In this document: positions 4,616 to 42,730 of the stretch, in pieces
Position numbering within the stretch: position 1 is the first letter of the stretch
Layout of the letters: every line of letters starts with the position of its first letter
NCBI GenBank assembly: GCA_036444495.1
Contig: JAZGBC010000160.1
Span: forward strand, 1-45,268
DNA from: Kiloniellales bacterium
GTDB lineage: Bacteria > Pseudomonadota > Alphaproteobacteria > Kiloniellales > J153
Length of the DNA: 45,268 nucleotides
Reading direction: 5' to 3'
Position numbers and translations under genes: made by a program
The notes under the pieces: model-generated
Seen by the model: only the letters and a program-made list of their open reading frames with translations
The model's database searches: none
What the model was told of the DNA's origin: nothing

Positions 4616-4621
4616 TCCCCC

Positions 4622-5170: not shown

Positions 5171-5330
5171 CTTTGTCGTTCCCCTATGGTCCAGGATGCG
5201 GAGGCCCCGGCTTCGCGTTGTCCCCAGCGACCTCTTGCGGGCCCCGCTTGTGTCGCAGCACGCATATAGAGGAAAATTTCCGCGAAGGCAAAGCCCGAAG
5301 CCGCACTTTTCAAGGACGGAATTCCCTACT

Positions 5331-5789
5331 ATGCGCCTGGCCCTTTTTGAACCCGACATCCCACAGAACGCAGGCGCGATCCTGCGCCTGGGCGCCTGCC
5401 TGGGCCTGCCCGTGGACATCATCGAGCCCTGCGGATTCCTGTTTGACGACAAGCGCTTGCGCCGGGCCGGTATGGATTACCTGGACCAGGTGGAGATGAC
5501 CCGGCACGATTCCTGGGCCGCCTACGCGCGCGCCCGGACCGGCCGGCTTCTGCTGCTGACCACCAAAGGCCGCACGCGCTATACGGACTTCGCCTTTCGC
5601 GCGGACGACACCCTGCTGCTCGGCCGCGAGAGCGCGGGCGTGCCAGAAGAAGTGCATGCCGCCGCCGATGCGCGCCTGGTGATCCCGCTGCGGCCCGAGG
5701 CGCGATCCCTTAATGTCGCGCTGGCCGCGGCCATGGTATTGAGTGAGGCCCTGAGACAAACCGAGTCGTTCCCGGACACTGCCCCATGA
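5331..5789 (+). CDS. trmL: SpoU/TrmL-type tRNA 2'-O-methyltransferase
   Basis: [19 protein letters not shown]...[11 protein letters not shown]...IP......SLNVA..A.. matches the TrmL (YibK) pattern. ATG at 5331. The length of about 152 aa is typical. Confidence 0.8.
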
Positions 5790-7120: not shown

Positions 7121-7795
7121 TCAGTGGGGGCTGGGATCGGCGCCGTTGCCGACGCGGCGCGTGACGTCCTGGTGCTCGGTCTCGATGAAGTCCCGGGTGA
7201 GCGCGGCAAGCTCCCGGTAGAAGGGCGAGTCCGTCTCGGCGAGCACGCGCTCACAGAAGGCGGGCGTCCAGCCGGCAAGATGCTGGTGCAGGAAATCACG
7301 CTCGATCTGCAAGCAGCGGCGCGCCTCTGCCTCATCGCCCTCGGCCCAGGCCAGGGCCTCGCGCCGGGTCAGTTCCTGCATCAGCTCCAGTTCCACACTG
7401 ATATGGTCCGGCAGGCCGTGGTAATCGGGGTCGTAGGCAAATCCGCAACGCCTGACGAAGGCGACGGTCTCGCTGGCCGCCTGACCGCAGAGCGTGCCCT
7501 CGCGCTGTACGCTCTCGTAGGGTGGGATGTGCTTGCCCGGCCCGATGAAGAGACGCGTGTATTCAACCGCCAGATCGTCGGCAAGTTCCTCGGGCGGTCT
7601 ATCGAGATAGCCGGGCTCGAAACGCACCCCCGCGTCCTTGAGCGATGCAAGCACGTTCTCGTCGCGGATGCGCCGCAGGAGCTCGGGAGTGGGTTCGGCG
7701 CGATGGATCGTGGCCAGGAAGCCGTAGAGGTTGCTGCGCTCTTCGGCGTTCCTGGCCAACTCGCGGGCCGTATCAGGGGTTCCCTGCGCGCTCAT
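7121..7795 (-). CDS. TorD/DmsD-family molybdoenzyme maturation chaperone
   Basis: 224 aa from MSAQGTP. YTRLFIGPG...PYESV and LPDHISVELE.M blocks are typical of TorD-like chaperones. It starts 2 nt after the stop of the catalytic-subunit gene. Confidence 0.75.
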   Translation of the reverse strand: MSAQGTPDTARELARNAEERSNLYGFLATIHRAEPTPELLRRIRDENVLASLKDAGVRFEPGYLDRPPEELADDLAVEYTRLFIGPGKHIPPYESVQREGTLCGQAASETVAFVRRCGFAYDPDYHGLPDHISVELELMQELTRREALAWAEGDEAEARRCLQIERDFLHQHLAGWTPAFCERVLAETDSPFYRELAALTRDFIETEHQDVTRRVGNGADPSPH

Positions 7796-7796
7796 T

Positions 7797-10334: not shown

Positions 10335-10346
10335 TCCCTCCTCGAT

Positions 10347-11309
10347 TCAAATTCCCACCGGGCCGGTAACCTGACCCGCGATTACCACCACGTAGCGCAG
10401 CAGGAAGCCGCCGATGAGCACCGCCACCGAGACGACGATGTCGACGTACCTCGGCGACGCGAACCCGCGGTGGTAGAGCAGCTCGGGAATCACGTAATAG
10501 AGCTCGATGAGCGCCGGGATCAGCAATCCGATCAGCACGACGCCCAACCAGAACAGCGGCGCCAAGTCGCCTCCCGGCAGGATGACGGACATCGCCTCCT
10601 TGACGTTGCCGATGGTCAACTGGGCGTACATGAGGAACAGGAAGATGACCATCAGCTCGAAGCCGATCAGCATCACGTCGGTCGCCGTCAGCAGATAGTC
10701 GCTCTCCTTGGCCGCCTGCTCGGCTTCCGGCGTGGACGTCCGGTGCAGAAGCGCCCGGAATAGCAGGATCACCGCAACCCCGGTGGAGATCGACGAGAGC
10801 ATGAACAGCAGCGCCAGGATGGGCGAGTTCCAGAACGGCCGCGCCGGCATGGCGCCCAGCAGGATGCCCGTGTAAATGGCGGTCGCGATGCCGAGCGGCA
10901 CGCTGACCCATGCCAGCATAACGCGCAGCGGCCTCTGCCACTCGCCCAGGAAGGGCGCGTTGGGCACGAAGGTATATGCGTAAGCCATGCTCACCATGAT
11001 GAAGAAGGAGAGCAGCCAGGTCCCGATGGACATGGGCGAGAGGTTGATCGTCATGTAGAGGTTGATCCAGCGGAACCAGTTTCCGACCTCGAAGGAACCC
11101 AGTTCGAAGATCAGCGCCAGGCAGCCAACCATCACCGGAAGCGGCGCGAGAAATGCCCCGTAGCGGGCGATCTCGACATGCGACCCGCCAAATCCGCCAC
11201 CGCCGCCGCGCAGCAGTACCGAAGCGCTCGCGGTCAGGGCCCCAGCGCCGACACCGGCCAGGAAAAGGTACAAGATGACGGGCATGCCCCAAGTCAGTTC
11301 GGCGGTCAT
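10347..11309 (-). CDS. NrfD/PsrC-type integral membrane quinol-interacting subunit
   Basis: 320 aa, about 8 hydrophobic helices. The N-terminus WGMPVILYLFLAGVGAG is characteristic of NrfD/PsrC. Confidence 0.8.
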   Translation of the reverse strand: MTAELTWGMPVILYLFLAGVGAGALTASASVLLRGGGGGFGGSHVEIARYGAFLAPLPVMVGCLALIFELGSFEVGNWFRWINLYMTINLSPMSIGTWLLSFFIMVSMAYAYTFVPNAPFLGEWQRPLRVMLAWVSVPLGIATAIYTGILLGAMPARPFWNSPILALLFMLSSISTGVAVILLFRALLHRTSTPEAEQAAKESDYLLTATDVMLIGFELMVIFLFLMYAQLTIGNVKEAMSVILPGGDLAPLFWLGVVLIGLLIPALIELYYVIPELLYHRGFASPRYVDIVVSVAVLIGGFLLRYVVVIAGQVTGPVGI

Positions 11310-11311
11310 GA

Positions 11312-12067
11312 CTACCTCCTTTCCGCTTGCCGGCGATGGGTCTCGATCCTGATGTACTCCCCATGCGCGTGCGAGGTATGCGGGTCGGAATGATCCGCGG
11401 CGATGTAAAAGACATTGGGTTGAGTGCCCATTTCCGGCCGCAACACGGTCACCGGATTATTGGCGATCATCCTGGAGATCTCGCTCTCGGGATCGTGCAG
11501 ATCACCGAAGATCCGCGCCCTGCCGATGCAGGTCTGCACACACGAGGGCTCCAGCCCCTTGGTGACGCGGTGCAGGCAGAAGTCGCACTTGTCAGCGGCG
11601 CCGGTCTTGGGGTTGAGGAAGCGGGCATCGTAGGGGCAGGCCTGGATGCAGTACTTGCACCCGATGCAGATATCGGGATCGATGACGACAATGCCGTCTT
11701 CCTTGCGCTTCCAGGTCGCGTTCGTGGGGCAGACGCTGACGCACTGCGGCTTGGAGCAGTGGTTGCACAGCCGCGGCAGGAAGCTGCGCCTCACGTTGGG
11801 ATAATCGCCCTTCTCGATGTATTCGACCCACGAGCGGTTGACGCCCAGGGGAACATCGAACTCGGCCTTGCAGGCGACGCTGCAGGCATGGCAGCCGATA
11901 CACCTGCGTAGGTCGATCAGCATTCCGTAATGAGGCTTGAGCGCCGTCACGGCTGCTCGCGTCGATTCGGCACCGGCCGCTACGCCCACGCCGGCCGCCG
12001 CGACGGCGGCCGTGCCCTTGAGAAACGCTCTGCGGTCGATCGAGGATGAATTATTTGGATCGGTCAC
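11312..12067 (-). CDS. Tat-signal 4Fe-4S ferredoxin-type electron-transfer subunit (TtrB/PsrB-like)
   Basis: 251 aa. DRRAFLKG twin-arginine motif and several CxxCxxCxxxCP clusters (CIGCHACSVACK, CNHCSKPQCVSVCP, CIGCKYCIQACP). Confidence 0.85.
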   Translation of the reverse strand: MTDPNNSSSIDRRAFLKGTAAVAAAGVGVAAGAESTRAAVTALKPHYGMLIDLRRCIGCHACSVACKAEFDVPLGVNRSWVEYIEKGDYPNVRRSFLPRLCNHCSKPQCVSVCPTNATWKRKEDGIVVIDPDICIGCKYCIQACPYDARFLNPKTGAADKCDFCLHRVTKGLEPSCVQTCIGRARIFGDLHDPESEISRMIANNPVTVLRPEMGTQPNVFYIAADHSDPHTSHAHGEYIRIETHRRQAERR

Positions 12068-23139: not shown

Positions 23140-24030
23140 TCAGGGCTCCTTCACGCGCCGGGCCCGGAGCTCCGGCAGGGCCTCGGTGACGCCGGCCAGG
23201 ATGATCAGCACACAGCCCGCCCCCTCGCGCCAGCCGAAGGGCTCGTCGGTCAACAGGCTGGAGCTGATGGAAGCCACCACCACCTCGAGCAGCAGAAGGA
23301 TCGAGACGCGCCCGGGTTCGAGCTTGGAAGCGGCCCAGAGCACGGGCCAGGTGGCCGGCAGCACGAAGAAAACCGCGATGACGAAGGCGAGCGGCAGGCC
23401 CTCCAGCACCAGGCGTCCCGTGGCCGGCGGCGAGGCGCCGAAGGCGATCAGCAGGAACGCGGTCAGGGTGGCGGCAACGAAGGCCACGAAGGTCTTTTCC
23501 AGACCCGCGACCTCCTCGGAGTCGCGCGCCAGGGTGGCCGAGACGGCGAAAAGCAGGCCCGAAATCAGGCCCAGCCAATCGCCTTCGGAACGCGGCAGGG
23601 GCAGGCCCTCCTCCACACCCAGGATGATCGCCGCACCCGTCAGCCCCAGGATCACGGTGAGCGCACGCAGGGGCCCGACCCGCGTCTTGAGAACGAAGAT
23701 GGCGAGCAGCGTGGCCCAGACCGGCGCCAGATAGAACAGCAGCACGACGCGCATGACCTGGCCGACGAGGACCGCATGATTCCACAGGACCAGCACCACG
23801 CCGAACAGCAGGCCGCAGAGCAGCAGCGTCCAGCCGCCCGCGTACAGCCGCCGCCGCCGCACCCAGGCCACGGGCAGGAGCACGCCCGCACCGATGGCGA
23901 AGATGGCCAGGCTGGCCCAGTCGCCCGGCAGGCCGCGCTCGGCCAGCCAGCGCAGGGGCAGCCACCAGAGTCCCCACAAGACCGCGCAGGCCACGACGGC
24001 GAGCGCCGGCAGGGCGGCCCCGCCGCCCAT
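23140..24030 (-). CDS. EamA/DMT-family transporter
   Basis: 296 aa from MGGGAAL, about 10 hydrophobic helices in two EamA-like halves. It starts 5 nt after the LysR gene stop. Confidence 0.7.
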   Translation of the reverse strand: MGGGAALPALAVVACAVLWGLWWLPLRWLAERGLPGDWASLAIFAIGAGVLLPVAWVRRRRLYAGGWTLLLCGLLFGVVLVLWNHAVLVGQVMRVVLLFYLAPVWATLLAIFVLKTRVGPLRALTVILGLTGAAIILGVEEGLPLPRSEGDWLGLISGLLFAVSATLARDSEEVAGLEKTFVAFVAATLTAFLLIAFGASPPATGRLVLEGLPLAFVIAVFFVLPATWPVLWAASKLEPGRVSILLLLEVVVASISSSLLTDEPFGWREGAGCVLIILAGVTEALPELRARRVKEP

Positions 24031-24035
24031 CGTGC

Positions 24036-24965
24036 TCAGGCGCTCAGTTCCTCGTCCCAATAGGGTGTCCCCCCGAAGCGTTCGGCCAGAAAATCCACGA
24101 ACACGCGCACCTTCGGCGAGAGGTGCCGCGCGGCAGGATAGACCGCGTAGACCGCGGTGTCTGCCGGCTCGCTCCATTCGGGCAGGATATGCACCAGGCG
24201 CCCGGCGCGCAGGTCTTCGCCGCAGATGAAGGTGGGCAGGAAGGCTATCCCCAGACCGCCAATGGCCGCGGCCAGCAGGGCATCCCCATTATTGATGCGC
24301 AGGCGCCCGGTCACGCGCAGGCGCCGCTCGCCGCCCGGGCCGCACAAACGCCAGACATCGCCCGCCGTCTGGTAACTGTAGAGCAGGCACTCGCGGTCCT
24401 GCAGGTCATCAAGGGCGGCCGGCTGCCCGCGCTCAGCCATATAGGCGGGCGCGGCGCAGAGCACGCGCCGGTTGGGCGCCAGACGCCGGGCGATCAGACT
24501 GGAGTCCTCCAGCTTGGCGATGCGCACCCCCACATCGAAGCCCTCCTCCACCAGGTCCACGAATCGGTCGTTGAGCGTCATCTCGACCGAAAGCTCGGGA
24601 TAGCGCGCCATGAAGTCCGGCAGGGCCGGGCCGACGCGGCGCACGCCGAAGGACATGGGCGCGTTGACCCGCAGCCGCCCGCGCGGCGCGGCGGCCAACT
24701 GCGTGACCGCCTGCTCGGCGGCCTCGGCCTCGGCCACCACGCGTTGACAGCCCTCGTAGTAGGCGGCCCCCGCCTCGGTCAGCGACAGGCGCCGGGTGGT
24801 GCGGTTGAGCAGGCGGACGCCGAGCGCCTCCTCCAGTCGGCTCACCTGTTTGGACACCGCCGACTTGGACAAGCCCAACTCGCGCGCCGCCTGGGAGAAG
24901 CTCTCGGCCTCCACGACACGGGCGAAGACCGCCATGGCATCCAATCGTTCCATATTCCAGCCCAC
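24036..24965 (-). CDS. LysR-family transcriptional regulator
   Basis: N-terminal wHTH (FARVVEAESFSQAARELGLSKSAVSKQVSRLEEALGVRLLNRTTRR) plus an LTTR substrate-binding domain. The start could instead be the ATG at 24953. Confidence 0.85.
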   Translation of the reverse strand: MGWNMERLDAMAVFARVVEAESFSQAARELGLSKSAVSKQVSRLEEALGVRLLNRTTRRLSLTEAGAAYYEGCQRVVAEAEAAEQAVTQLAAAPRGRLRVNAPMSFGVRRVGPALPDFMARYPELSVEMTLNDRFVDLVEEGFDVGVRIAKLEDSSLIARRLAPNRRVLCAAPAYMAERGQPAALDDLQDRECLLYSYQTAGDVWRLCGPGGERRLRVTGRLRINNGDALLAAAIGGLGIAFLPTFICGEDLRAGRLVHILPEWSEPADTAVYAVYPAARHLSPKVRVFVDFLAERFGGTPYWDEELSA

Positions 24966-32254: not shown

Positions 32255-33013
32255 TTACACCAGCGTGCGGCCGCCATCGACGTAGATGGTCTGGCCGGTG
32301 ATGAAGGCGCCCGCCGGTGAGGCGAGCAGCAGGACCGTTCCCACCAGATCCTCGACCGTGGCGAAGCGGCCCAGGGGGATGCGGCTCATCTGGTAGTCGT
32401 ACTTGCCGGTCTTCTTGAGAAACTCCTCGACCAGCGGGGTCGCGATCACCGCCGGACCGATGGCGTTCACCGTCACCCCGAGCGGGGCCCATTCCAGCGC
32501 CAGCACGCGGATCAGATGCGAGAGCGCCGCCTTGCCGCTGGCATAGGCCGCGTATTCCGGGTTGACCACCTGGCTGGAGACCGAGGCGAGGTGGATCATG
32601 CGCCCGCCGCCCCGATCGGCCATGACCCGGGCCGCTTGGCGGGAGAGGAGAAACGCGCCGGTCACGTTGGTCGCCAGCGTCTCGGCGAAGTCCTCCGCCG
32701 GAAGCTCGAGTGCCGGGGCGGTGCGGAAGATGCCCACGCTGTTGAGCAGAAGGTCCAGACGCCCGGTCAGGCCAAGCGCCGCCTTAACCGCGGCCTCGCA
32801 GGAGGCCTCGTCCCGGACATCGAGCGGGCAGGAGCCGTGGCCCTCCCCGGGCAGCCCCCCGGCCACCCCGCGCGCCGCCGCGGCGTCCTGGTCCGCCACC
32901 ATGACCCGCGCCCCGCGCTCGGCCAGCGCCTCGGCCAGCCCGGCCCCGATGCCGCCTGCAGCCCCGGCGGCGAGCACCGCCCGCCCGGCCATATCGAACA
33001 GCGGATCGGTCAT
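32255..33013 (-). CDS. short-chain dehydrogenase/reductase (SDR)
   Basis: 252 aa. Gly-rich NAD(P) motif GAAGGIG, catalytic YASGKAAL (YxxxK), and the C-terminal GQTIYVDGG. Confidence 0.8.
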   Translation of the reverse strand: MTDPLFDMAGRAVLAAGAAGGIGAGLAEALAERGARVMVADQDAAAARGVAGGLPGEGHGSCPLDVRDEASCEAAVKAALGLTGRLDLLLNSVGIFRTAPALELPAEDFAETLATNVTGAFLLSRQAARVMADRGGGRMIHLASVSSQVVNPEYAAYASGKAALSHLIRVLALEWAPLGVTVNAIGPAVIATPLVEEFLKKTGKYDYQMSRIPLGRFATVEDLVGTVLLLASPAGAFITGQTIYVDGGRTLV

Positions 33014-33044
33014 GGCGGCGCCGCGTTCCCGAAGCCGCCCGCGA

Positions 33045-33956
33045 TCAGACCGCGGGCCGAGGCTGGGGCGATGCCGGCATGTGCAGCATCTCGCGCGCCT
33101 CTTCCGGACTGGCCACCTCGCGCCCCAGCTCTCGCACGATGCGCACCGCGCGCTCGACCAGTTGCGCGTTGCTTTCGGCGAGCCGTCCGGGGCCGTAGTA
33201 GACGTTGTCCTCCAGCCCGACGCGGATGTTGCCGCCCATCGCCACCGCCATGGTGCTGAGCGGAAGCTGGTACTTGCCGATGCTCACGATCTGCCAACTG
33301 GAGCCCTCGGGAATGGCGTCCAGCATGGCGAGCAAATTGGCGGGGCTGGCCGGGATGCCGCCGCGGATGCCCATGACGAAGCTGAAGTGAAGCGGCGGCT
33401 CGAACACGCCTTTCTTGGCCAAATCGAGGACGTTTTCGATGTGGCTCAGGTCATAGACCTCGATCTCGTTGGCGATGCCGCGGTACTTGCAGCCCTCGAT
33501 GAACTCGGCGTTCCATTGCTTCGAATTGGAGAACAGCCACTCCTGACCCTTGTGGTCGAAGTGGAAGGTGCCGGCGTTCACGGTCAGCATGTCCGGTTGC
33601 GGCGCGATGTCCAGCAGCGCCGTACGCTCCTCCTGCTTGAAGGGCTGGCCGATGCCCTCGTCATCGAACCAGATGCCGATGCCGTTGCCCACCTGGGTGA
33701 TCATGCCGGGACAGCGGCTCATCACGCCGTCGACCACCTCGCGATAGATCGACAGGTCGCTGGAGGTGCGCCCCTTGGGGTCGCGCACGTGAATGTGGGC
33801 CACCGAGGCGCCGGCGTCGTAGCAATCGTGAAAATCGCTAATGATTTCCTCCGGTTGCTCGGGCAGGGCCGAATTCGCCTCCTTGCCGTGCAGGCCGCCG
33901 GTCGTGGCGATCGTGATGACGGCTTTTCCCGGGTTGGTCAGGTTCGGTTTCATCAT
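33045..33956 (-). CDS. beta-keto acid cleavage enzyme (BKACE / DUF849, 3-keto-5-aminohexanoate cleavage family)
   Basis: 303 aa from MMKPN. ITIATTGG...LP..PEEI......C.DAGASVAHIHVRD matches the BKACE TIM-barrel N-terminus. The upstream track extension is rejected. Confidence 0.8.
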   Translation of the reverse strand: MMKPNLTNPGKAVITIATTGGLHGKEANSALPEQPEEIISDFHDCYDAGASVAHIHVRDPKGRTSSDLSIYREVVDGVMSRCPGMITQVGNGIGIWFDDEGIGQPFKQEERTALLDIAPQPDMLTVNAGTFHFDHKGQEWLFSNSKQWNAEFIEGCKYRGIANEIEVYDLSHIENVLDLAKKGVFEPPLHFSFVMGIRGGIPASPANLLAMLDAIPEGSSWQIVSIGKYQLPLSTMAVAMGGNIRVGLEDNVYYGPGRLAESNAQLVERAVRIVRELGREVASPEEAREMLHMPASPQPRPAV

Positions 33957-34050
33957 CGGCCTCCCGTTCTCGTTACCCCGTTTCCCGGAGTTTCGCGGCG
34001 AAAACGGCCGGGACCCAGGAGTCCGGGCGCGACGGCTTCGCCGGACGTCA

Positions 34051-34097
34051 ATCATGTTCGCTACGGAAAATGAAATCAATCGTATTGCATACCGGAA
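34051..34097 (+). promoter_or_regulatory. copy 1 of a conserved 47-nt promoter-region block (candidate IclR operator)
   Basis: ATCATGTTCGCTACGGAAAATGAAATCAATCGTATTGCATACCGGAA matches 38902-38948 at about 39 of 47 positions (hand alignment), with a 31-nt core differing at 3 positions. It contains the dyad ATGAAAT-N7-ATTGCAT and lies between the divergent BKACE and TAXI genes. Confidence 0.55.
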
Positions 34098-34208
34098 CGG
34101 ATGCGCTAAAGTGAATTGGCATAAGAAAAATTGCAGAAACGCGCACCGGAAGCGGGCCCCGGCGCTTAAACGGGCTCAACCGCATGAGGTGCCAGGGAGG
34201 AACGAACC

Positions 34209-35285
34209 ATGCTGAGACGAGGAGTCTTGCGCGCCCTTGCGGGCGCAATCGCCGTCCTGTTGCTCGGGGCGGCGGGTCTTCCGGCCTATGCCCAGAGCAA
34301 ACCGATTGTCGTTCCCATCTTGAGCTGCCCCTTCGGCTGCGGCGTGGTCACCGGCAACACCTTGTTCGGCACCGTCATGGCCAAGGGCGGGGAACAGCTC
34401 ATGATCGCGGCCCAGGAAACGCCCGGCTACATGTACAACGTGCGCGCCATGGCGGCCGAAAAGCGCTGGAAGACCAACGTTTTCGGCACCGAGGACGTGA
34501 TCATCCAACTCGCGCTCCAGGGCGGCACGCCGGAGCTCAAGGAGTTCCTTCCCGAGCCCGTGCCCATCAAGTTCCAGCTCTTGCACGGGGAGGCCTATTG
34601 GGCCCAGGGCAAGTTCTTCGTGACCACGGACCCGAACATCAAGTCCATCGCCGACATGAAGGGCAAGCGGGTCTCACTCGGCCTGCGTGGGCAGAGCGAT
34701 TGGGGCGTTTACCCGCGTCTCATCCTCGAGCACGCCTATGGCATCACGCCGGACAACACCGACATCCGGCACATGACCCCGGGCGCGCTGACCCAGCAGT
34801 TGATCGACGGCACGACCGATGTGGCGGTCACCGGCTTCGGCACCGAGCCGAGCCAGACCTTCCACCTCATCACCGGGCCGCTGCGCAAGCTGCAGGCCTC
34901 GGGCAAGAAGATCTACTACATTCCCATCGAGCAGTCGGCCATCGACAAGGTGAACAAGAAGTTCCGCACCACCTTCGTGGCCAAGACGGTCAAGGCGGGC
35001 ACCATGCCGCAGCAGGACAAGGACCTCCTGATCGGCTTCGTGCGGGGCTACAAGGCGGTGCACCCGAACTTCCCCGAGGACGTCGCCTATCAGTTCGTCA
35101 AGGCGGTGCACAAGTACTCCGGGGAGATGAAGAAGCTCCACCCGCTCTGGGGCATGCTGACCCCGGACATGATGATCGACGGGTTGACCGAGGAGAACAC
35201 CCACCCCGGCGCCATCCGGGCCTACAAGGAGATCGGTATCTGGGATCTCAGGTTGAAAACGATCCCGGTCACCTATCCGGAATAG
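34209..35285 (+). CDS. TAXI-type TRAP transporter solute-binding protein (probable)
   Basis: 358 aa with a signal peptide (LLLGAAGLPAYAQS). Periplasmic-binding-protein-like composition, immediately upstream of a fused 4TM/12TM TRAP permease, which is the usual partner of TAXI receptors. Family assignment is by context and weak motif recall. Confidence 0.6.
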   Translation: MLRRGVLRALAGAIAVLLLGAAGLPAYAQSKPIVVPILSCPFGCGVVTGNTLFGTVMAKGGEQLMIAAQETPGYMYNVRAMAAEKRWKTNVFGTEDVIIQLALQGGTPELKEFLPEPVPIKFQLLHGEAYWAQGKFFVTTDPNIKSIADMKGKRVSLGLRGQSDWGVYPRLILEHAYGITPDNTDIRHMTPGALTQQLIDGTTDVAVTGFGTEPSQTFHLITGPLRKLQASGKKIYYIPIEQSAIDKVNKKFRTTFVAKTVKAGTMPQQDKDLLIGFVRGYKAVHPNFPEDVAYQFVKAVHKYSGEMKKLHPLWGMLTPDMMIDGLTEENTHPGAIRAYKEIGIWDLRLKTIPVTYPE

Positions 35286-35306
35286 GCTAGGCTAAACGGC
35301 CTTCTT

Positions 35307-35341
35307 GTCCCCGGCGTGGCGGCGCGGCCCGCGCCGGGGAC
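35307..35341 (+). terminator. intercistronic GC hairpin between receptor and permease genes
   Basis: Perfect 10-bp stem GTCCCCGGCG (35307-35316) / CGCCGGGGAC (35332-35341) followed by TTCATTCT. This could be a partial terminator or mRNA stabiliser giving excess binding protein. Confidence 0.4.
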
Positions 35342-35414
35342 TTCATTCTGAGACGAACGTGGCCCGGACCGCGCAGCCGCTCGGCCGGGCCACTTCTATG
35401 GCGGGGGCGGGGCG

Positions 35415-37364
35415 ATGGAGCAAACCTGGAAGACGGTCAGACTCGCGCTCAGCGTGCCGTTCTGGGCGGCGGGCGCGGTGTTGACCTTCTACATCGGCCT
35501 GAACGTCTTCGGCTTCATCCGCAATTCCTCGGAGCACTACGCCACCTTCGTGCTGGCCATCGTGGTCATGACGGGGCTGCTCGCCCTGCGCAACGCGGTC
35601 GACAGGCAGGGCGGCCGGGCCCCGGATTGGCGTTTCTGGGCGCGCTTGGCCGCCGCATTGCTGGGCTCGCTGCTGGCCACCGCGGGCGCGGGCTTCGTCC
35701 TGCTGAATGCCGTGCGTTTCGAGATGATTCAGCCCTTCTTCGAGCCCTTCGATGTCCAGATGGGGCTGGTGCTCGCGGCGGGCATCCTGATCCTCACCTG
35801 GATCCACTGGGGACCGCTTCTGACCGCCATCGTGGTCGGCGCGATCGTTTATTTCTTCTACGGCCATCAGATCGGGAACGTGCTGTTCGCCCACCCGGAG
35901 TACGACACCAACTTCGTGATGAACTACGTCAGCCTGGGGACCAACCAGGGCTTCTACTGGCTGGCGCAGGTGGCCGCCGACAGCATCTATTTCCTGATCT
36001 TCTACGCCGCCATCCTGCTCGGCCTGGGCATGCTCCAGATGGTGCTCGAGATCGGCAAGGTAAGCGGCCGCTACATCCATGGCGGCGCGTCCTTCCCCGC
36101 CATCGTGGGCAGCGGCATCGTGGCCTCTGTCATGGGCCAGGCGGTATCCAACGTGGTGCTGACCGGCCGTTTCACCATCCCCATGATGAAGGAGAACGGC
36201 TACCGCGCTTCCATGGCCGGGGCGATCGAGGCGGTGGCCTCGACCTCGGGGCAGATCATGCCGCCGATCCTGGGCCTGGCCGGCTTCATCATCGCCTCGT
36301 TCCTCAACGTGCCCTATATCGAGGTCGCCCTGTCCGCGCTCATCCCCGCGTTTCTGTTCCTGAGCGGCGTTACCATTGGGATCCTGATCTATGCCCGGCG
36401 CTATAAGCTACCCAAGCTGGAGACGCGGGCCGACCGCAAGCTCATCCTGCGCATGCTGCCCGCCTTTCTCGGCTCCTTCATCGTGGTCCTGGTACTCCTG
36501 CTCAATTACCACTCGCCGGCCTTCGCCGGCCTGGCCGGAACCGCCGTGGCCCTGGTGCTCTGCCTCTTTCAGGGCCGCTACCGGCCCAAGCTGAAAAAGT
36601 TTCTCGAATCCGTCGAGGACGGGCTGGTGCTCATCGCCCTGCTCTCGCTGCTGCTCATCGCCATCGGGCCGCTCGGGCAGGTGATCCTGACCACCAACCT
36701 GTCCGGACGGCTGGGCGCGGCGCTGGTGGGTATCCTGCCCGACATCAAGGTGGTGCTGCTGCTCGGCGCCATGGTGGTGTCGCTGGTACTCGGCATGGGG
36801 CTGCCGACGCCCGTCGCCTACGTGGTGGTGGTGCTGGCGCTTTCGCCCTTCCTTCAGCAGTTGGGCGTGCCGGCGCTGCACGCGCATTTTTTCGTCTTCT
36901 ACTTCGCGGTCTTCTCCACCCTGACCCCGCCCGTTGCGGTCAGCGTGTTGGCCGCGGCCAAGCTGGCCAACGCCCGCTTCCTGGACACCGCCGCCGACGC
37001 CATGAAGCTGGCGGTGACCACCTTCCTTATTCCCTTCGCTTTCGTCTTTCACCCCCAGCTGCTGTCCTTTCCCAACCTCACCTGGTCGGTGATCCCGCCG
37101 GTTGTTCTCCTGCTCGTGCTGCAATGGACGGTCTCGGTCGCCGCCTACGGCTATTTCCGGCGCAATCTCGGGGCGGTAGAGCGCACGGCCTTCACGCTCG
37201 TTTCCCTGGCCGGCTTCCTCGCCATCGTGACGCCGGGAGCCACCACCAAGCTCCTGTTCGCCCTGTTGCTGGTCTTGACCATGGGTTGGATCCTGCTGGC
37301 GCCCGCGGGCCGCGCCGCCGCCCTGGCCAACACCGAGCCCCGACGTAACGAGGAATCGTCGTGA
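35415..37364 (+). CDS. TRAP transporter fused 4TM/12TM permease
   Basis: 649 aa, highly hydrophobic with more than 14 predicted helices. Size and architecture fit the fused DctQM-like permease of TAXI-TRAP systems. Confidence 0.8.
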   Translation: MEQTWKTVRLALSVPFWAAGAVLTFYIGLNVFGFIRNSSEHYATFVLAIVVMTGLLALRNAVDRQGGRAPDWRFWARLAAALLGSLLATAGAGFVLLNAVRFEMIQPFFEPFDVQMGLVLAAGILILTWIHWGPLLTAIVVGAIVYFFYGHQIGNVLFAHPEYDTNFVMNYVSLGTNQGFYWLAQVAADSIYFLIFYAAILLGLGMLQMVLEIGKVSGRYIHGGASFPAIVGSGIVASVMGQAVSNVVLTGRFTIPMMKENGYRASMAGAIEAVASTSGQIMPPILGLAGFIIASFLNVPYIEVALSALIPAFLFLSGVTIGILIYARRYKLPKLETRADRKLILRMLPAFLGSFIVVLVLLLNYHSPAFAGLAGTAVALVLCLFQGRYRPKLKKFLESVEDGLVLIALLSLLLIAIGPLGQVILTTNLSGRLGAALVGILPDIKVVLLLGAMVVSLVLGMGLPTPVAYVVVVLALSPFLQQLGVPALHAHFFVFYFAVFSTLTPPVAVSVLAAAKLANARFLDTAADAMKLAVTTFLIPFAFVFHPQLLSFPNLTWSVIPPVVLLLVLQWTVSVAAYGYFRRNLGAVERTAFTLVSLAGFLAIVTPGATTKLLFALLLVLTMGWILLAPAGRAAALANTEPRRNEESS

Positions 37365-37501
37365 TCCTGATCGGCCGGTACTTTTCCCCTTTCACCCGGC
37401 GCGTAGCCGTCACGCTGCGCCGAGTCGCCGGCCTTCGCCGCGACCCAGCCGGAGCCCGGTTGAGCGCGAAGCCGCGTAACTGGCCGCTCAGGCCGGCTCG
37501 A
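37361..37501 (+). pseudogene. glutathione S-transferase 5' remnant (about the first 20 codons recognisable)
   Basis: From GTG 37361: VILIGRYFSPFTRRVAVTLR resembles the conserved N-terminus of alphaproteobacterial GSTs (..LIG.Y.SP..RRVAV.L). The reading then degenerates into Arg/Pro-rich sequence and stops after 46 codons, running into the convergent BCCP gene. Confidence 0.35.
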
Positions 37502-37988
37502 TGACGAAAAGGGCCTGGTCGTATTCCACCGCGGTCGCGTTCTCGACGGCGATCTCCACGATGCGGCCGGCTTCCTGCGCCTCGATCGTGGTGAAGAGCT
37601 TCATGACCTCGATCATGCAGACGGGATCGCCCGGCTCGACGCGGTCGCCGACTTCGACGAAGGGCGGGTCCTGGGGGCTGGGCGCGCGGTAGAAGGTGCC
37701 GACCATGGGCGCCCGGATCGTCACCAGGCCGTTGCTGTGCGCCGCCGCTTCCCCCGCCCCCTCGGCGCGCCGGGCCACGGGCGTAGTCTCCGACCCCCCC
37801 GTCTCGAAGGCCGCCGCAGTGCCTGCCGCCGCCTTTTCGCTATCGCTATAGTCCGCCTCCGCCTGCCCGTCCGCGCCGCGCCGGCGCACGACAAGCCGCA
37901 TATCGTCCAGCTCGACGATCAGCTCCTGGCAATCGCTGGCGTCGATCAGCTTGATGATCTCGGCCACGTCCTTGTAGCTAAGGGCCAC
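37488..37988 (-). CDS. biotin carboxyl carrier protein (stand-alone BCCP, AccB-like)
   Basis: 166 aa. AccB-type N-terminus (IKLID.S...EL), Ala/Pro-rich linker, and the biotinyl-lysine motif CMIEVMKLF. Confidence 0.85.
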   Translation of the reverse strand: MALSYKDVAEIIKLIDASDCQELIVELDDMRLVVRRRGADGQAEADYSDSEKAAAGTAAAFETGGSETTPVARRAEGAGEAAAHSNGLVTIRAPMVGTFYRAPSPQDPPFVEVGDRVEPGDPVCMIEVMKLFTTIEAQEAGRIVEIAVENATAVEYDQALFVIEPA

Positions 37989-38031
37989 CTTGTTTACCCA
38001 TTCTCTCTTGCCTTCGCCGCCGCCTCGCCCA

Positions 38032-38901
38032 TTACATTTCCTCGGCGAAGGTCTCGGAAAGCTTTTCCGCGGCCTCGCGCAGCAGCGGCACCTGCGCGCG
38101 CGCCTGTTCCAGGGTCATGCGCGCCTCGGGCGCCGAAAAGGCGATCCCGGCGCAAAGGCCCCCTTGGGGCCCGGTGACCGGCACCGCGAGGCAGACGACC
38201 CCGGACATGAACTCCTGATTGTCGGTCGCGTAACCTCTGCGGCGAATGTCTGCGAGTTCGGCGAGCAGGCGATCCCGCGCGGTGATGGTGTTCTCCGTAT
38301 AGCGCTTGAGCGGCAGCGTCGTGAGAGTCTTCTCGAGCTGCGCCTCGGGCAGTTTGCTGAGGAACAGCTTGCCCAGCGAGGTGCAGTGCAGCGGCACCCG
38401 GCTGCCCGGCTCGAAACGCAGGCCGAGCGGCCAGGCGGCCTCGACGCGATCGAGATAGACCACCTCGTTGCCGGACATGACGCCCAGGTTGCAGGTCTCG
38501 CCGATCTCCTCGGACAGGGCCTTGAGGATGCCGTGGCGCGGGCCGCGCCGGGCGGCCGCCTGCAGCACCTGAAGGGCCAGCTGCACGAGCCGCTTGCCCT
38601 CGACGAAGCGCCGGCTGCCCGGCTCGCGCTCCAGGTAGCCCAGGCCCTCCAGCGCCGTGCCGATGCGGTGCGCCGTGGGTTTTGACAGGTGCAGCATGGC
38701 CGAGAGCTCCGCGATCGAGACCGGGTGGCCGTCGCGCACCACCGCTTCGAGGATCCTGAGCGCCTTGCCGGTCGACCCGGCGCCCTCTTCGGCGGCGGGG
38801 GCGGCCCCGGGGCGTTCCCCGCGAGGTTCGATGGGTTGTTGCGTCTGGATCGTAGGCACGCGGCAATTCCGGCTTTCTTGACAGGGAATAGGGTGTGGCA
38901 A
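38032..38901 (-). CDS. IclR-family transcriptional regulator
   Basis: wHTH (LRILEAVVRDGHPVSIAELSAMLHLSKPTAHRIGTALEGLGYLER) plus the IclR effector domain (...CLAVPV.G..G...AGI.FSAP..RM). An alternative GTG start is at 38859. Confidence 0.85.
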   Translation of the reverse strand: MPHPIPCQESRNCRVPTIQTQQPIEPRGERPGAAPAAEEGAGSTGKALRILEAVVRDGHPVSIAELSAMLHLSKPTAHRIGTALEGLGYLEREPGSRRFVEGKRLVQLALQVLQAAARRGPRHGILKALSEEIGETCNLGVMSGNEVVYLDRVEAAWPLGLRFEPGSRVPLHCTSLGKLFLSKLPEAQLEKTLTTLPLKRYTENTITARDRLLAELADIRRRGYATDNQEFMSGVVCLAVPVTGPQGGLCAGIAFSAPEARMTLEQARAQVPLLREAAEKLSETFAEEM

Positions 38902-38948
38902 ATTATGATTGCTGCAAAAAATGAAATCAATCGTCTTGCATGTCGGAA
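38902..38948 (+). promoter_or_regulatory. copy 2 of the conserved 47-nt promoter-region block (candidate IclR operator)
   Basis: ATTATGATTGCTGCAAAAAATGAAATCAATCGTCTTGCATGTCGGAA lies between the divergent IclR and carboxyltransferase genes. It has the same orientation as copy 1 and contains the ATG at 38940 used by the ORF track. Confidence 0.55.
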
Positions 38949-40463
38949 TTCACCTCCCAGGCCCCAGGGGGACCGGAAGTGCCTAGTCCGCGACGCGTGC
39001 GCCTGATCGACGTCACCCTGCGCGACGCCCACCAGTGCCTCTGGGCGACCCGCATGACCACCGCCATGATGCGGGATATCGCGCCGCTTCTGGACCGCGC
39101 CGGCTTCGAGGCCATCGATCTGGTGGGCGGGGCGGTCTTCGACGTCATGGTGCGTTACCTGCGCGAGGACCCCTGGGAGCGCATGCGCATCCTGAGCGCC
39201 TGGGTGACCGAGACGCCGCTCATCGTGCACCACCGGGGCCAGAGCCTCTTTACCTTCGAGTTCTTCCCCGACGACGTGGTCGAGCGCACGGCCGAGCGCA
39301 TCGCGGCCAACGGCATCCGCTATCACACGCTCTACGATGCCTTGAACGACATGCGCAACCTGGAGGTCCCGGTGCGCGCGGCCAAGAACGTGGGCCTGCA
39401 CACCGTGGGCGGCCTGGTCTACACCCACAGCCCTGTCCACACCGACCAATACTATACCGGCAAGGCGCGCGAGCTGATCGCGCTCGATGTCGACGGCGTC
39501 TTCATCAAGGACCCCAGCGGCCTTCTCACGCCCGAACGGGTGGCGACCCTGGTCCCCGCGCTCAAGGCGGTCTGCGGCGAACTCCCGCTACAGCTTCATA
39601 TGCACTGCCTGACGGGGCTCGCGCCCTATGCCGCGCTGCAGGCGGTGGAGCACGGCGTCGAGGTGGTGCACACGGCCACCTCGGTCATCGCCAACGGCGC
39701 CTCCCACTCGCCCACCGAGCTGTTCACGCGCAACTGCCGGCGCCGCGGCCACGAGGTCTCGATCGACCTGGAACCCGTGGAGCAGGCGGCCGAGAAGCTC
39801 GCCTTCATCGCCGAGCGCGAGGACAAGGCCCTGGGCCGGCCGCTGGAGTACGAGGAGTTCCATTTCCACCATCAGGTTCCGGGCGGCATGGTCTCGAACC
39901 TGAAATACCAGTTGGAGACCATGGGCATCGCCGAGCGCCTGGAAGAGATACTGGAGGAGGCGGGGCATGTGCGCGCGGACCTGGGCTATCCCATCGTGGT
40001 CAGCCCCTTCGCCCAGTTCATCATCACCCAGGCGGTGCTCAACGTCATGGGCAAGGACCAGGGCCGGGAGCGCTACGCCACCGTGCCCGACGAGGTGCGC
40101 CGCTATGTCATGGGCGGCTATGGCGAGATCGCCGGGACCATCGAGCCCGATCTCTACGACCGGATCGCGCGTGGCGCGGAACCCGCCACCGAACGCCCCG
40201 GCGCGCTGGTGCCACCGGCGCTGGAGCGCATCCGCAAGGAGCGCGGTCCCTTCGAGTCCGACGACGACCTGCTGCTGGCCGCTTTCTACGGCGAGACGGA
40301 ATACGGCGCGCTCAAGGCCGCCGGCCCGATCGATACCGACTACGCGCTCGGCCCTTCGCCACTCGTCACCCTGGTCAAGGAGATCGCGGCGCGCCCCGAC
40401 ATCAAGTCGCTGCGCATCACGGGCCGCAACGGCCGGAGGCCTCGGGTTGGTGCCGCGGGCTAG
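38940..40463 (+). CDS. biotin-dependent carboxyltransferase (oxaloacetate decarboxylase alpha / pyruvate carboxylase B / transcarboxylase 5S-like), without a biotinyl domain
   Basis: RLIDVTLRDAHQ....RM.T..M....P.LD..GF..I...GGA.FD...R.L.EDPWER is the HMGL-like/PYC_OADA carboxyltransferase signature. There is no C-terminal (A/V)MKM motif. The start is uncertain: ATG 38940 lies inside the conserved operator-like block, and GTG 38979 is an in-frame alternative. Confidence 0.85.
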   Translation: MSEFTSQAPGGPEVPSPRRVRLIDVTLRDAHQCLWATRMTTAMMRDIAPLLDRAGFEAIDLVGGAVFDVMVRYLREDPWERMRILSAWVTETPLIVHHRGQSLFTFEFFPDDVVERTAERIAANGIRYHTLYDALNDMRNLEVPVRAAKNVGLHTVGGLVYTHSPVHTDQYYTGKARELIALDVDGVFIKDPSGLLTPERVATLVPALKAVCGELPLQLHMHCLTGLAPYAALQAVEHGVEVVHTATSVIANGASHSPTELFTRNCRRRGHEVSIDLEPVEQAAEKLAFIAEREDKALGRPLEYEEFHFHHQVPGGMVSNLKYQLETMGIAERLEEILEEAGHVRADLGYPIVVSPFAQFIITQAVLNVMGKDQGRERYATVPDEVRRYVMGGYGEIAGTIEPDLYDRIARGAEPATERPGALVPPALERIRKERGPFESDDDLLLAAFYGETEYGALKAAGPIDTDYALGPSPLVTLVKEIAARPDIKSLRITGRNGRRPRVGAAG

Positions 40464-40687
40464 ACGCCGCCCCTCTCGCAGGAGCCGGCCAGCCTGCCCT
40501 GCCCCTCCGCTTTCATACTGCCATGGATTCCCCGGACGAAGTTTTCAGAAACCACACCGGTACCGCGACAAAATGCTAGAATTTCTGCGGTCGACGGAGT
40601 TTCCCGGCAGGGACAGCGTATCCAAGGAATACAATCGACGCCGTTTCGTGCGTTATCTGCAAAATGTAGGTTGAAAGAGATCGTATT

Positions 40688-42730
40688 ATGACCGCCAAGA
40701 CGACTTACTCCTCGTGTTACCAGTGCGCTTACGATTGTCCGATAACCGTGATTAGCGAGGGAGAAGAGGTCATTTCTGTCGCACATCCCGATTGTGTGCG
40801 GGCGGAAGCGATGCTTGAGCAACGGGATAGCGAGAGACGCCTGATCCGGCCACAGATTCGCGCAAGCTCCAGTGATGATTGGCGGAACGTGTCATGGCGC
40901 GATGCGATCTCTCACGGTGCGAAAAAACTCCGGGAAATCCGTGACCGTTACGGCCCGGATGCGATCGCCTTCGCGGTTGGCTACACCAAAGAGGTGCGAC
41001 CGTATTTACAACGGCTCGCCTATTCCTTCGGCTCTCCCCATTACATCACCGAATCCAGTTGCTGTTTCGGAGCGGGCTATGTGGCTGCCGCGATCACGTT
41101 GGGCGAGGAGTACAGTTATTACCTCGGCCCGAGCCGGGCCAACGTTCCGGAGAGCCGGTGCCGGCTCGTTTGGTCCAATAATCCAACCGAGAGCCAGTTG
41201 CCCTTTGATCGCCACCACCTGATTACCGGGGCAGCGAAGGTGCCGACGATCGTGGTTGATCCGCGCCGCAGCCCGCTGGCGGAACGTGCGGCCATACACC
41301 TGATGTTGCGCCCCGGAAGCGACGGAGCGCTGGCCTTGGGGCTGGCCCACGTCATTTTCGAGGAGGGCTTGGAGGACGAGGACTTTCTGGCCAAGCACGC
41401 CCACGGGCTGGAAGAGTACAAGCGCTATGTGAAAGGTTTCACGCCCGAGTTGACAAGCGAGATCACTTGGGTTGCGAAGGAAAAGATCATCGAGGCGGCG
41501 CGGCTCTACGCCTCATCGCGCCCGGCGCAGATCACCATCTCGCCCACAGCCACCGTCCACCACAGCAATGGTTTCCAGAACCATCGCGCCGTTCTCCTGC
41601 TTTCGGCTATCTGCGGTAATTTGGACATCACCGGCGGCAACAAGCCATCTGGAAACCGATTGCTGGGGAAGAACGTCTCCTTGCGCGAGGAAAAGTTGTC
41701 AGAGCACGGCAAGGAGATGGGCGAAGCGGAGTTCCCCGTTTTCACCAAGCATTACGGACAGGGCCAGGCTATGGCGCTAGCGGATTACATCGAGTCGGGC
41801 AAAGTGAAGGCGGTCTTTTCCGTCGGCATGAACCTGATGATGTGGCCGAATTCCAAAAGGTTGGAGCGGGCGCTTCATTCCCTGGAATTCTTCAGCACCA
41901 GCGATTTCTTTCCCACCCCCACCGTCGAGGCGGCGTCGATCTTCTTTCCGGCCGCCACCCACCTGGAACGGCAGTCGCTCATCATCGACGCCAAGGGCCG
42001 GGTGCAATACCGGCCTGCCGCGGTTCCGCCACGCGGGGAGGCAAAGGGGGATACGGAACTGGTTTTCGACATGGCGGCGGCGTTGGGGCTGGACAACATG
42101 TTCTGGGGCGGCAATATCCACGCCAGTTTCAACGAACGGCTGCAACCCACCGGCCTGTGCTTCGACGATCTGCCCGCGGATGGAAAAAGCGTCCCCGTCG
42201 AGGTGCCGGCCATCCCGGATCTCAGTTACGAGCAGAATGGTTTTGGCACACCAAGCGGCAAGGTCGAATTTGCCAGTACGACCTTGGAAAAGGCCGGTCA
42301 TAATGCTCTACCCGTTTACAAGGAACCGTACTGGAGTCCGATAAGTACGCCGGAGGTCGCCAAGGACTTTCCGCTGATCCTCACCTCCGGTGGCCGTAGC
42401 GCCAACTACACCCACTCGCAGGGGCGGTTTCTGGCAACGCTGAGAAATCGCGAACCTGGACCTCGCTTGCAATTGAATCTTGATGACGCCAGGGAGCGCG
42501 GCATCGAGGACGGTGACCGGGTGGCGGTTACCTCGCCGCTCGGCAAGATCGAGATGAACGCATGGCTGACGGAAATCTTGCCTCCCGGCGTGGCGCACGC
42601 CTTCCACGGATGGGCAGAGGCCAATATCAATGACCTTATTCCCGATCAAGGCCTTGATCCGATCTCCGGCTATCCCCCTTTTAAGTCTAGCCTTTGCGAG
42701 GTTTCCAAGAGTTCTCGAACCTTATCGTAG
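40688..42730 (+). CDS. cytoplasmic molybdopterin (bis-MGD) oxidoreductase, single catalytic subunit, substrate unknown
   Basis: 680 aa with no Tat signal. The Fe-S motif starts at residue 10 (C-x2-C-x3-C-x18-C). MopB-family blocks are present (DAIAF..G, VVDPRRS..A..A..HL.LRPGSDGAL, C-terminal GD.V.V.S..G). Candidate Mo-ligand region ITESSCCFG. Codon usage is visibly more AT-rich than in neighbouring genes. Confidence 0.8.
   Translation: MTAKTTYSSCYQCAYDCPITVISEGEEVISVAHPDCVRAEAMLEQRDSERRLIRPQIRASSSDDWRNVSWRDAISHGAKKLREIRDRYGPDAIAFAVGYTKEVRPYLQRLAYSFGSPHYITESSCCFGAGYVAAAITLGEEYSYYLGPSRANVPESRCRLVWSNNPTESQLPFDRHHLITGAAKVPTIVVDPRRSPLAERAAIHLMLRPGSDGALALGLAHVIFEEGLEDEDFLAKHAHGLEEYKRYVKGFTPELTSEITWVAKEKIIEAARLYASSRPAQITISPTATVHHSNGFQNHRAVLLLSAICGNLDITGGNKPSGNRLLGKNVSLREEKLSEHGKEMGEAEFPVFTKHYGQGQAMALADYIESGKVKAVFSVGMNLMMWPNSKRLERALHSLEFFSTSDFFPTPTVEAASIFFPAATHLERQSLIIDAKGRVQYRPAAVPPRGEAKGDTELVFDMAAALGLDNMFWGGNIHASFNERLQPTGLCFDDLPADGKSVPVEVPAIPDLSYEQNGFGTPSGKVEFASTTLEKAGHNALPVYKEPYWSPISTPEVAKDFPLILTSGGRSANYTHSQGRFLATLRNREPGPRLQLNLDDARERGIEDGDRVAVTSPLGKIEMNAWLTEILPPGVAHAFHGWAEANINDLIPDQGLDPISGYPPFKSSLCEVSKSSRTLS

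Follow-up and report, generated by a model that had tools for sequence, protein, structure and literature searches.

A conserved two-copy promoter module as the probable tandem operator of an IclR-type regulator in a Kiloniellales catabolic gene cluster

Known IclR operators and the locus

Repressors of the IclR type reportedly bind DNA in tetrameric form, and ligand releases them (PMC5814911). The main (group-1) motif of the family is GKTYCRYW3-4RYGRAMC (Suvorova & Gelfand 2021, PMC8222616), and in 94 orthologous groups sites occur in tandem with their centers 18 to 22 nt apart, an arrangement consistent with tetramer binding (PMC8222616). Here, we describe a block of ~50 bp that occurs twice in a 45,268-nucleotide stretch of a Kiloniellales bacterium (contig JAZGBC010000160.1; the whole stretch is called the window below), each time between divergent genes of a cluster that also encodes an IclR-family regulator. 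Comparison with related loci indicates that it is a conserved cis-regulatory module, neither a dispersed repeat nor an RNA element, and most likely the binding site of the neighboring IclR-type regulator.

Group-1 tandem operators (PMC8222616) are similar to the block in several respects, as its predicted sites are 17 bp long, match GKTYCRYW3RYGRAMC at 12 to 15 of the 17 positions, have centers 22 bp apart, and lie in a divergent region beside the regulator gene, with site centers 38 to 119 nt from the gene starts. The block is also conserved upstream of the orthologous regulator and its putative targets, the footprint expected of such an operator. Unlike in group-1 operators, its arms are weakly symmetric and AT-rich (GAAAT/GGAAY), nearer to the WTT-11-AAW subgroup, and the linker between the sites is invariant, doubling as a putative -35 element. 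In the parts of the Suvorova & Gelfand supplementary tables that were accessible, COG5016, AccB, and COG3246 are listed as regulated COGs (PMC8222616), and neither the orthologous group of the window IclR nor the site strings of the distant orthologs described below appear.

For the TtgV and BlcR systems, PDB entries 2XRO and 3MQ0 are among the sequence relatives of the window IclR, although at low identity (E values of 1e-16 to 1e-18). TtgV at ttgGHI and BlcR at blcABC use an operator of ~40 to 50 bp with two adjacent sites, bound by a dimer of dimers, that overlaps the promoter and is vacated upon effector binding. Effector and pathway differ from those of the window, where one operator type would serve two separate divergent regions.

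The PcaU and PobR regulators of Acinetobacter belong to the named NCBIfam subfamily nearest to the window IclR. They act on three 10-bp boxes in the divergent pobR/pobA or pcaU/pcaI region. An extra box is required for binding (PMC8222616). As in the window, regulator and target are transcribed divergently, and the promoter of the regulator gene itself, a predicted one in the window, is overlapped by the site. However, PcaU and PobR are activators with GTNCG-N5-6-CGNAC boxes, while the boxes of the block are AT-rich and their position relative to the predicted promoters favors repression.

Finally, among the regulators with AT-rich operators in Enterobacteria (KdgR, IclR, and AllR), KdgR is the third best NCBIfam match of the window IclR, at 142 bits versus an equivalog cut-off of 275. 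The half-site AATGAAA(T/C) of the block resembles the KdgR half-site. The boxes differ in arrangement and spacing, and the regulated genes have no relation to pectin catabolism. KdgR sites are listed among the A/T-rich palindromic motifs (PMC8222616).

A repeated block in two divergent promoter regions

The two copies, labeled far and near type, were scored with a position weight matrix (PWM) built from all 14 copies found in this and related genomes.

34050..34099, plus strand: block copy 1 (far type), between BKACE (minus) and TAXI (plus); direct repeat, PWM score 87.3
38901..38950, plus strand: block copy 2 (near type), between IclR (minus) and carboxyltransferase (plus); direct repeat, PWM score 88.6

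A repeat search of the window recovered a 48-nt direct repeat, 34050-34097 versus 38901-38948, with 81% identity (39/48). This agrees with the original prediction, which had been made from the DNA letters alone and placed a repeated block in the same two divergent promoter regions and between the same genes. Where it gave about 39 identities in 47 nt, counting by hand yields 38/47 for 34051-34097 versus 38902-38948. The 31-nt core held up as described. Its degenerate form AAAATGAAATCAATCGTMTTGCATRYCGGAA matches exactly at 34067-34097 and 38918-38948, where the copies differ at three positions, and no further match was found in the 45-kb window with up to 3 mismatches (none either in 100 dinucleotide shuffles). 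As had also been claimed, the flanks do not align between the copies. The PWM detected no weaker third site in the window or in nine related loci. The AT-rich block is conspicuous in a window with 59 to 71% G+C.

Conservation, distribution, and age

Scanning genomes with the window IclR protein provided 80 related loci; loci from this and the other scans carry L numbers. In the closest (L001), a Kiloniellaceae metagenome-assembled genome with an IclR 81% identical to that of the window, both copies occupy syntenic places, and in a four-way alignment the block alone is conserved, the flanking intergenic DNA being unalignable. Altogether, 14 copies were recovered from eight genomes (IclR identity of 69 to 100%), located only between BKACE and TAXI or between IclR and the carboxylase operon. 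Their consensus is aAt.ATG...g...c..aaAaTGAAATCAATcGT.TTGcAT..cGgAA, with an almost invariant 24-nt center. Every relative with an IclR at least 72% identical keeps the block at both syntenic positions. The far-type copy is conserved at its place in L001, L088, L096/L106, L099/L128, and L132/L133, and the near-type copy in L001, L106, L123/L128, L127, L130, and L132, with more diverged versions in L134 and L122. Four of these loci, L128 (77%), L130 (76%), L132/L133 (72%), and L134 (69%), were reached through the IclR protein and not through the DNA pattern, and they have the block at both places wherever the genes are present. By PWM, there are exactly two copies per locus. The phylogenetic footprinting that had been suggested as a check thus finds the block conserved in orthologous promoters. 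Among the 80 IclR-homolog loci, the 21-nt core with up to 6 mismatches was found in L001 only, and distant orthologs were aligned by anchoring on TTGCA.

The copies cluster by type (near or far) and not by genome, and a few type-specific positions are common across genomes. Because of this grouping, the duplication must be old and predate the lineages, with both copies under selection.

A metagenome-wide scan for the 21-nt core ATGAAATCAATNGTNTTGCAT returned 47 stretches. Eight also hold the flanks of the block (L088, L096, L099, L106, L122, L123, L124, and L127), and all eight lie between BKACE and TAXI or beside the IclR and carboxylase genes. The remainder come mostly from one low-GC human-gut element, together with two mid-GC matches that share the 21-nt pattern only. 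A dispersed repeat with many copies at unrelated loci had been named as one finding that would overturn the regulatory interpretation; against such a repeat, for instance of the REP or MITE type, no flank-bearing copy was seen at an unrelated locus in the metagenome scan, and the 45-kb window holds two. As for the low-GC element (27 to 51% G+C; human-gut and other metagenomes; L082-L086, L089, L090, L094, and about 25 more from the core scan), over 30 of its contigs share ATGAAATCAATGGTTTTGCAT and the same flanks around it. It is unrelated to the block and probably marks where a widespread gene begins.

Two predicted 17-bp sites with centers 22 bp apart

We scanned the 50-nt block in every register with the 17-bp consensus GKTYCRYW3RYGRAMC. 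The two best registers, at block positions 11 and 33, are exactly 22 nt apart and score 12 to 15 of 17 in all 14 copies, within the spacing range of tandem operators, while the next best register has a mean of 9.9/17. The predicted sites, to which no strand is assigned, have the general form GCTRCRRAAAATGAAAT (site A) and GTMTTGCATNNCGGAAY (site B):

34060..34076: predicted IclR site A, copy 1, GCTACGGAAAATGAAAT, 13/17 to consensus
34082..34098: predicted IclR site B, copy 1, GTATTGCATACCGGAAC, 14/17, center 22 bp from that of site A
38911..38927: predicted IclR site A, copy 2, GCTGCAAAAAATGAAAT, 13/17 to consensus
38933..38949: predicted IclR site B, copy 2, GTCTTGCATGTCGGAAT, 12/17 to consensus

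Block positions 11 and 15, a partly conserved G and C in the otherwise variable spacer, coincide with the left-arm G and C of site A. Since the consensus is degenerate, a single fit means little, and the argument rests on three replications. In 18 distant orthologous IclR-upstream regions (44 to 59% identity), where the sequence is a different one, GTATCAAAAACCGGAAC-N5-GTCTTGCAATATGAATC, these two registers are again the best. Pairs at exactly 22 nt also occur in regions that hold no copy of the block, upstream of TAXI in L134 (15/17 for both sites) and L122, and upstream of IclR in L025. Last, within ~400 nt upstream of the 80 IclR homolog genes we counted 31 tandem pairs at a distance of 22 nt, with 1 to 8 pairs at most other spacings and a secondary excess of 17 at 21 nt. 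The 22-nt spacing is about 19-fold enriched there, and no excess appeared in the remaining 1.2 Mb. Two tandem sites at this distance would imply a tetramer.

Two observations concern the more distant relatives. Betaproteobacterial homologs have quite different arms, e.g., GGGTGGCTAAATAGAACC-N4-GTTCCGGAATATGATAA, with the same phasing. L003-L016 and L029 carry a homologous 45-bp element, TATCAAAAACCGGAAnnnnnnnnCTTGCAATAYGAATTTTTGATA, about 50 to 150 nt upstream of iclR. L012 has a perfect version of the outer inverted repeat, TATCAAAAA / TTTTTGATA. The hexamer at the center of the element, TTGCAA, is a palindrome and could act as a -35 element both ways. In these orthologs, the IclR start codon is only about 10 nt from the element, which suggests an iclR mRNA that is leaderless or has a very short leader.

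Other site types were compared with the block. The group-2 IclR consensus TGRAACAN1-2TGTTYCA fits poorly (8-10/15-16). By eye, there was no fit to sigma-54 (the GG at -24 is missing), ECF/EcfG (GGAAC-N16-CGTT), FNR (TTGAT-N4-ATCAA), LysR (T-N11-A), or CcrM (GANTC) sites, and for IHF the spacing was one base off.

The original prediction had proposed another anatomy, a 21-bp imperfect dyad, ATGAAAT-N7-(A/C)TTGCAT, of the size for one dimeric regulator. The dyad does exist within the invariant center of the block, with arms complementary at 6/7 positions in copy 1 and 5/7 in copy 2, and is weak. That it is the operator, bound by a single IclR dimer, seems unlikely to us. Its 7-nt spacer is as invariant as the arms, and conservation extends beyond it, 7 nt rightward (CGGAA) and leftward into the A-tract. 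In L134, the two changes are not symmetric, and distant orthologs do not have the dyad but retain the two registers spaced by 22 bp. Neither published IclR arrangement has boxes 7 to 8 nt apart in dyad orientation. In terms of the tandem sites, which fit better, the proposed dyad is a composite of the right arm from site A and the left arm from site B.

Promoter-like elements within the block

Besides the predicted operator, the block contains conserved promoter-like hexamers. From these we infer one candidate promoter for each of the four transcription units, with predicted starts near 34044 and 38895 on the minus strand and near 34119 and 38913 on the plus strand:

38878..38906, plus strand: TTGACA-N17-AATTAT, carboxyltransferase operon; 10/12 in a consensus scan, predicted start near 38913, at the edge of site A
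38902..38930, minus strand: TTGATT-N17-CATAAT, iclR and the biotin carboxyl carrier protein (BCCP) gene; 9/12 in the consensus scan, -35 between sites A and B and overlapping site A
34051..34079, minus strand: TTGATT-N17-CATGAT, BKACE and SDR genes; candidate at 8/12, below the scan threshold
34085..34112, plus strand: TTGCAT-N16-TAAAGT, TAXI-TRAP operon; candidate read from the sequence, -35 inside site B

On the minus strand, TTGATT-N17-CATNAT is present in all 14 copies, with invariant hexamers and a variable 17-nt spacer, the pattern expected of a promoter for iclR-BCCP and BKACE-SDR. On the plus strand, TTGACA-N17-AAYTAT occurs in 8/9 near-type copies (AACTAT in L134), the exception being L122 with a 19-nt gap and ACTATG. 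The far-type copies have no upstream TTGACA. Five of the six have TTGCAT-N16-TA(A/C/G)A(C/G)T, with TAAACT, TACACT, or TAGACT at the spacing of the predicted TAXI -10 in L088, L096, L099, and L001, and nothing comparable in L132. ATCATG is invariant in all six, though without an accompanying plus-strand -35. Distant orthologs retain TTGCAA-N18-CAnnnT. The predicted sites overlap these -35- and -10-like hexamers on both strands.

Such hexamers, correctly spaced on both strands around a variable spacer, could suggest that the block is nothing but a pair of back-to-back sigma-70 promoters with UP-like AT-rich elements, or an architectural site of the IHF type, with IclR acting elsewhere. The AATCAA-N5-TTG of the block also resembles the IHF core, WATCAANNNNTTR. 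We regard this as improbable, given that the 24 consecutive near-invariant positions exceed the need of promoter hexamers, that the block occurs only beside the IclR gene cluster, and that the 22-bp tandem signature is specific to regions upstream of IclR homologs; the IHF variant faces in addition the spacing that is one base off.

The IclR regulator as the probable binder

The window IclR is 100% identical to a database protein of 275 aa (P0001) and has full-length similarity to solved IclR proteins, including 1mkm, 2ia2, and 3mq0. It falls below every equivalog cut-off in NCBIfam, the nearest families being PcaR/PcaU/PobR (163 bits versus a cut-off of 285), BhcR, and KdgR. No other regulator is encoded in the conserved cluster; the next nearest, a LysR gene that adjoins a pirin operon, is 9 kb away. 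In all loci the iclR gene adjoins copy 2, and it is at most 5 kb from copy 1, as expected for a cognate regulator. Throughout the clade that has the invariant core, the recognition helix reads SKPTAHRIGT without change, and in L134, where the helix has become KPTGHRIAS, the core has changed as well. This covariation is soft but consistent support for IclR as the binder. The suggestion that the block is an operator shared by the adjacent IclR protein, with autoregulation and control of both loci, therefore gains support from the comparative data, namely syntenic conservation, absence from unrelated loci, constant co-occurrence with the IclR gene, and enrichment of the site signature upstream of IclR homologs.

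The sense of the regulation would be repression, judging from the position of the sites. An activator, or a dual regulator of the PcaU/PobR type that represses its own gene and activates the divergent catabolic operon in the presence of effector, seems less likely still than the two alternatives above. It would agree with the closest NCBIfam subfamily and with copy 1, where site A has an activator-like position relative to the predicted TAXI promoter, about -43 to -59. Nevertheless, the sites of copy 2 are downstream of a TTGACA-N17-AATTAT of consensus type, for which no activator should be necessary, and at least one site overlaps a core element in every predicted promoter.

We can dismiss as hardly credible a structured RNA leader or riboswitch of both plus-strand operons, and likewise a neutral leftover from a mobile repeat or from some recent duplication, in spite of the shared orientation of both copies relative to the plus-strand genes, because there was no Rfam match in the block (E ≤ 1 over 33000-40000, where the sole match, E = 0.34, is elsewhere), fold z-scores were near zero (-0.38 to +0.70 for both strands of both copies), transcription from the predicted far-type promoters would begin outside the core, the grouping of copies by type and not by genome means that the duplication is not recent, and none is found at unrelated loci.

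A composite promoter and operator

All considered, the block is probably a composite promoter/tandem-operator module present in two copies. The two 17-bp sites of each copy, with centers 22 bp or about two helical turns apart, would expose the same face of the DNA, and the IclR protein (38032-38859) probably binds each 39-bp pair as a tetramer (dimer of dimers). At copy 2, site A would cover roughly +1 to +15 of the carboxyltransferase promoter and, in the iclR promoter, the spacer together with some of the -35. At copy 1, site B would sit on the TAXI -35, with site A extending over the BKACE promoter's spacer and -35. One bound tetramer could thus shut both divergent promoters. This geometry favors repression of all four units, with a predicted regulon of iclR-BCCP (autoregulation), the carboxyltransferase operon, TAXI-TRAP, and BKACE-SDR, and a small-molecule effector at the IclR_C domain would release it.

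Some observations speak against this interpretation. The consensus is very degenerate, with 298 window positions at 12/17 or better and 13 tandem pairs at 18 to 22 nt. Symmetry within each site is poor, at 2 or 3 of the 5 arm positions, and site A varies in its left arm. The 5-bp linker CAATY shows no less invariance than the arms; the sites alone do not account for this, so that it must be ascribed to the overlapping -35. The choice of registers was post hoc and the distant regions share homology, so the replication is not fully independent. Finally, the promoter hexamers of copy 1 are below the scan threshold and the far copy of L132 has no plus-strand -10.

Genes around the two copies

The genes adjoining the block are the following:

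32255-33013, minus strand: SDR dehydrogenase; Pfam adh_short_C2, NCBIfam match below the equivalog cut-off
33045-33956, minus strand: BKACE; Pfam BKACE, start ATG 33956 with a GGGAGG ribosome-binding site, NCBIfam below the equivalog cut-off
34209-35285, plus strand: TAXI solute receptor; TIGR02122
35415-37364, plus strand: fused TRAP permease; TIGR02123
37488-37988, minus strand: BCCP, downstream of iclR; Pfam Biotin_lipoyl, TIGR00531
38032-38859, minus strand: IclR-family regulator, 275 aa, start GTG 38859; Pfam HTH_IclR and IclR_C
38979..40463, plus strand: carboxyltransferase, PYC/OadA-type (pyruvate carboxylase subunit B/OadA-like); NF006761, 435 bits; corrected GTG start
40688-42730, plus strand: molybdopterin oxidoreductase

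The IclR-BCCP gene pair is kept in most related loci. The carboxyltransferase had been called from ATG 38940, which does lie inside copy 2 and had been flagged as doubtful, with GTG 38979 as the alternative. The sequence comparison places the start at GTG 38979. Eight orthologs begin M-(P/G/A)-R-(T/S)-V-R-L-I-D, and GTG CCT AGT at 38979 falls opposite their start codon, which reads ATG CCT AGA in the closest matches. In L106, an in-frame stop is right behind the block. ATG 38940 is not conserved; it supplies the G of TTGCATG, a position where other near-type copies have T, C, or A and only L130 shares the G.

After the carboxyltransferase, L128, L130, and L132 have a second BKACE gene (276 aa). 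In the window (40464-42730), a 225-nt gap follows, and then the molybdopterin oxidoreductase, which has no Fe4S4-domain match. Here G+C falls to 0.59-0.63 (0.60 and 0.59 over 41-43 kb) and third-position GC is low. The region 40464-42730 may be a replacement or insertion.

The catabolic cluster

A biotin carboxylase gene (~452 aa) is located between the block and the carboxyltransferase in L001, L127, L132, L134, L122, and most distant orthologs. It is absent from the window, L106, L128, and L130, the last of which has a short remnant of its N terminus (RVLVADRGKN...). The spans compared were 38860-38978 in the window, 8351-9706 in L001, 4126-5484 in L132, and 7701-8000 in L130. No biotin carboxylase was found among the main open reading frames (ORFs) of the 45-kb window, which has BCCP and carboxyltransferase without the cognate carboxylase. 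The window lineage has lost the gene from the locus, and as a consequence the enzyme would need a carboxylase in trans or run as a decarboxylase.

Tentatively, and with low confidence, we suggest that the two operators define the regulon of an uncharacterized catabolic module, widespread in Alpha- and Betaproteobacteria, that represents a new carboxylation route dependent on ATP. The parts of the module are a biotin enzyme of three components (biotin carboxylase, PYC/OadA-type carboxyltransferase, and free BCCP), the beta-keto-acid cleavage enzyme BKACE, an SDR dehydrogenase, and a TAXI-TRAP carboxylate importer. In such a route, an imported keto acid would be carboxylated to a beta-keto diacid (e.g., a levulinate-like substrate to 3-oxoadipate) and then cleaved by BKACE with acetyl-CoA, and IclR, whose nearest subfamily is PcaR/PcaU, would sense the beta-keto diacid intermediate. 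We found no literature on BKACE with IclR or on BKACE with biotin carboxylase and TRAP.

The locus itself was found in DNA metagenomes only. Four metatranscriptomes contain short contigs of ~90%-identical relatives, mainly of the TAXI gene; the sediment metatranscriptome contigs X24-X27 (~90% identical) cover parts of the TAXI receptor gene at window positions 34410-35236. Relatives may express the transporter in situ, although DNA can be present in such runs.

Other observations in the window

The ORFs of an EamA transporter (23140-24177, minus strand) and a LysR regulator (24036-24965, minus strand) overlap by about 140 nt, and the EamA start is probably called too far upstream. A PsrABC-like set on the minus strand (7121-12067) adjoins cytochrome bc1 genes (3305-5452) and is unrelated to the block; it is formed by a molybdopterin oxidoreductase (Fe4S4 domain present), a 4Fe-4S dicluster protein, an NrfD membrane subunit, and a NarJ-like chaperone.

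Meaning for the family

The module is of a known kind, a local IclR-type tandem operator in a divergent regulator/target region, duplicated to add a second gene pair, and the regulatory mechanism it points to is not of a new kind. The novelty lies in the particular orthologous group, in its sites phased by 22 bp, and in its regulon. This group of IclR orthologs has no characterized member, and for it there is now a precise predicted operator (39 bp, two boxes) and a predicted regulon of four operons, into which the TAXI-TRAP/BKACE-SDR pair would have been recruited by copying a whole promoter-operator cassette. The shared module would tie the biotin-carboxylase, BKACE, and TRAP genes, a conserved cluster with no assigned function, into one functional unit and narrow the search for substrate and effector. 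The regulated cluster (biotin enzyme, BKACE, SDR, and TAXI-TRAP) is a more interesting question than the operator.

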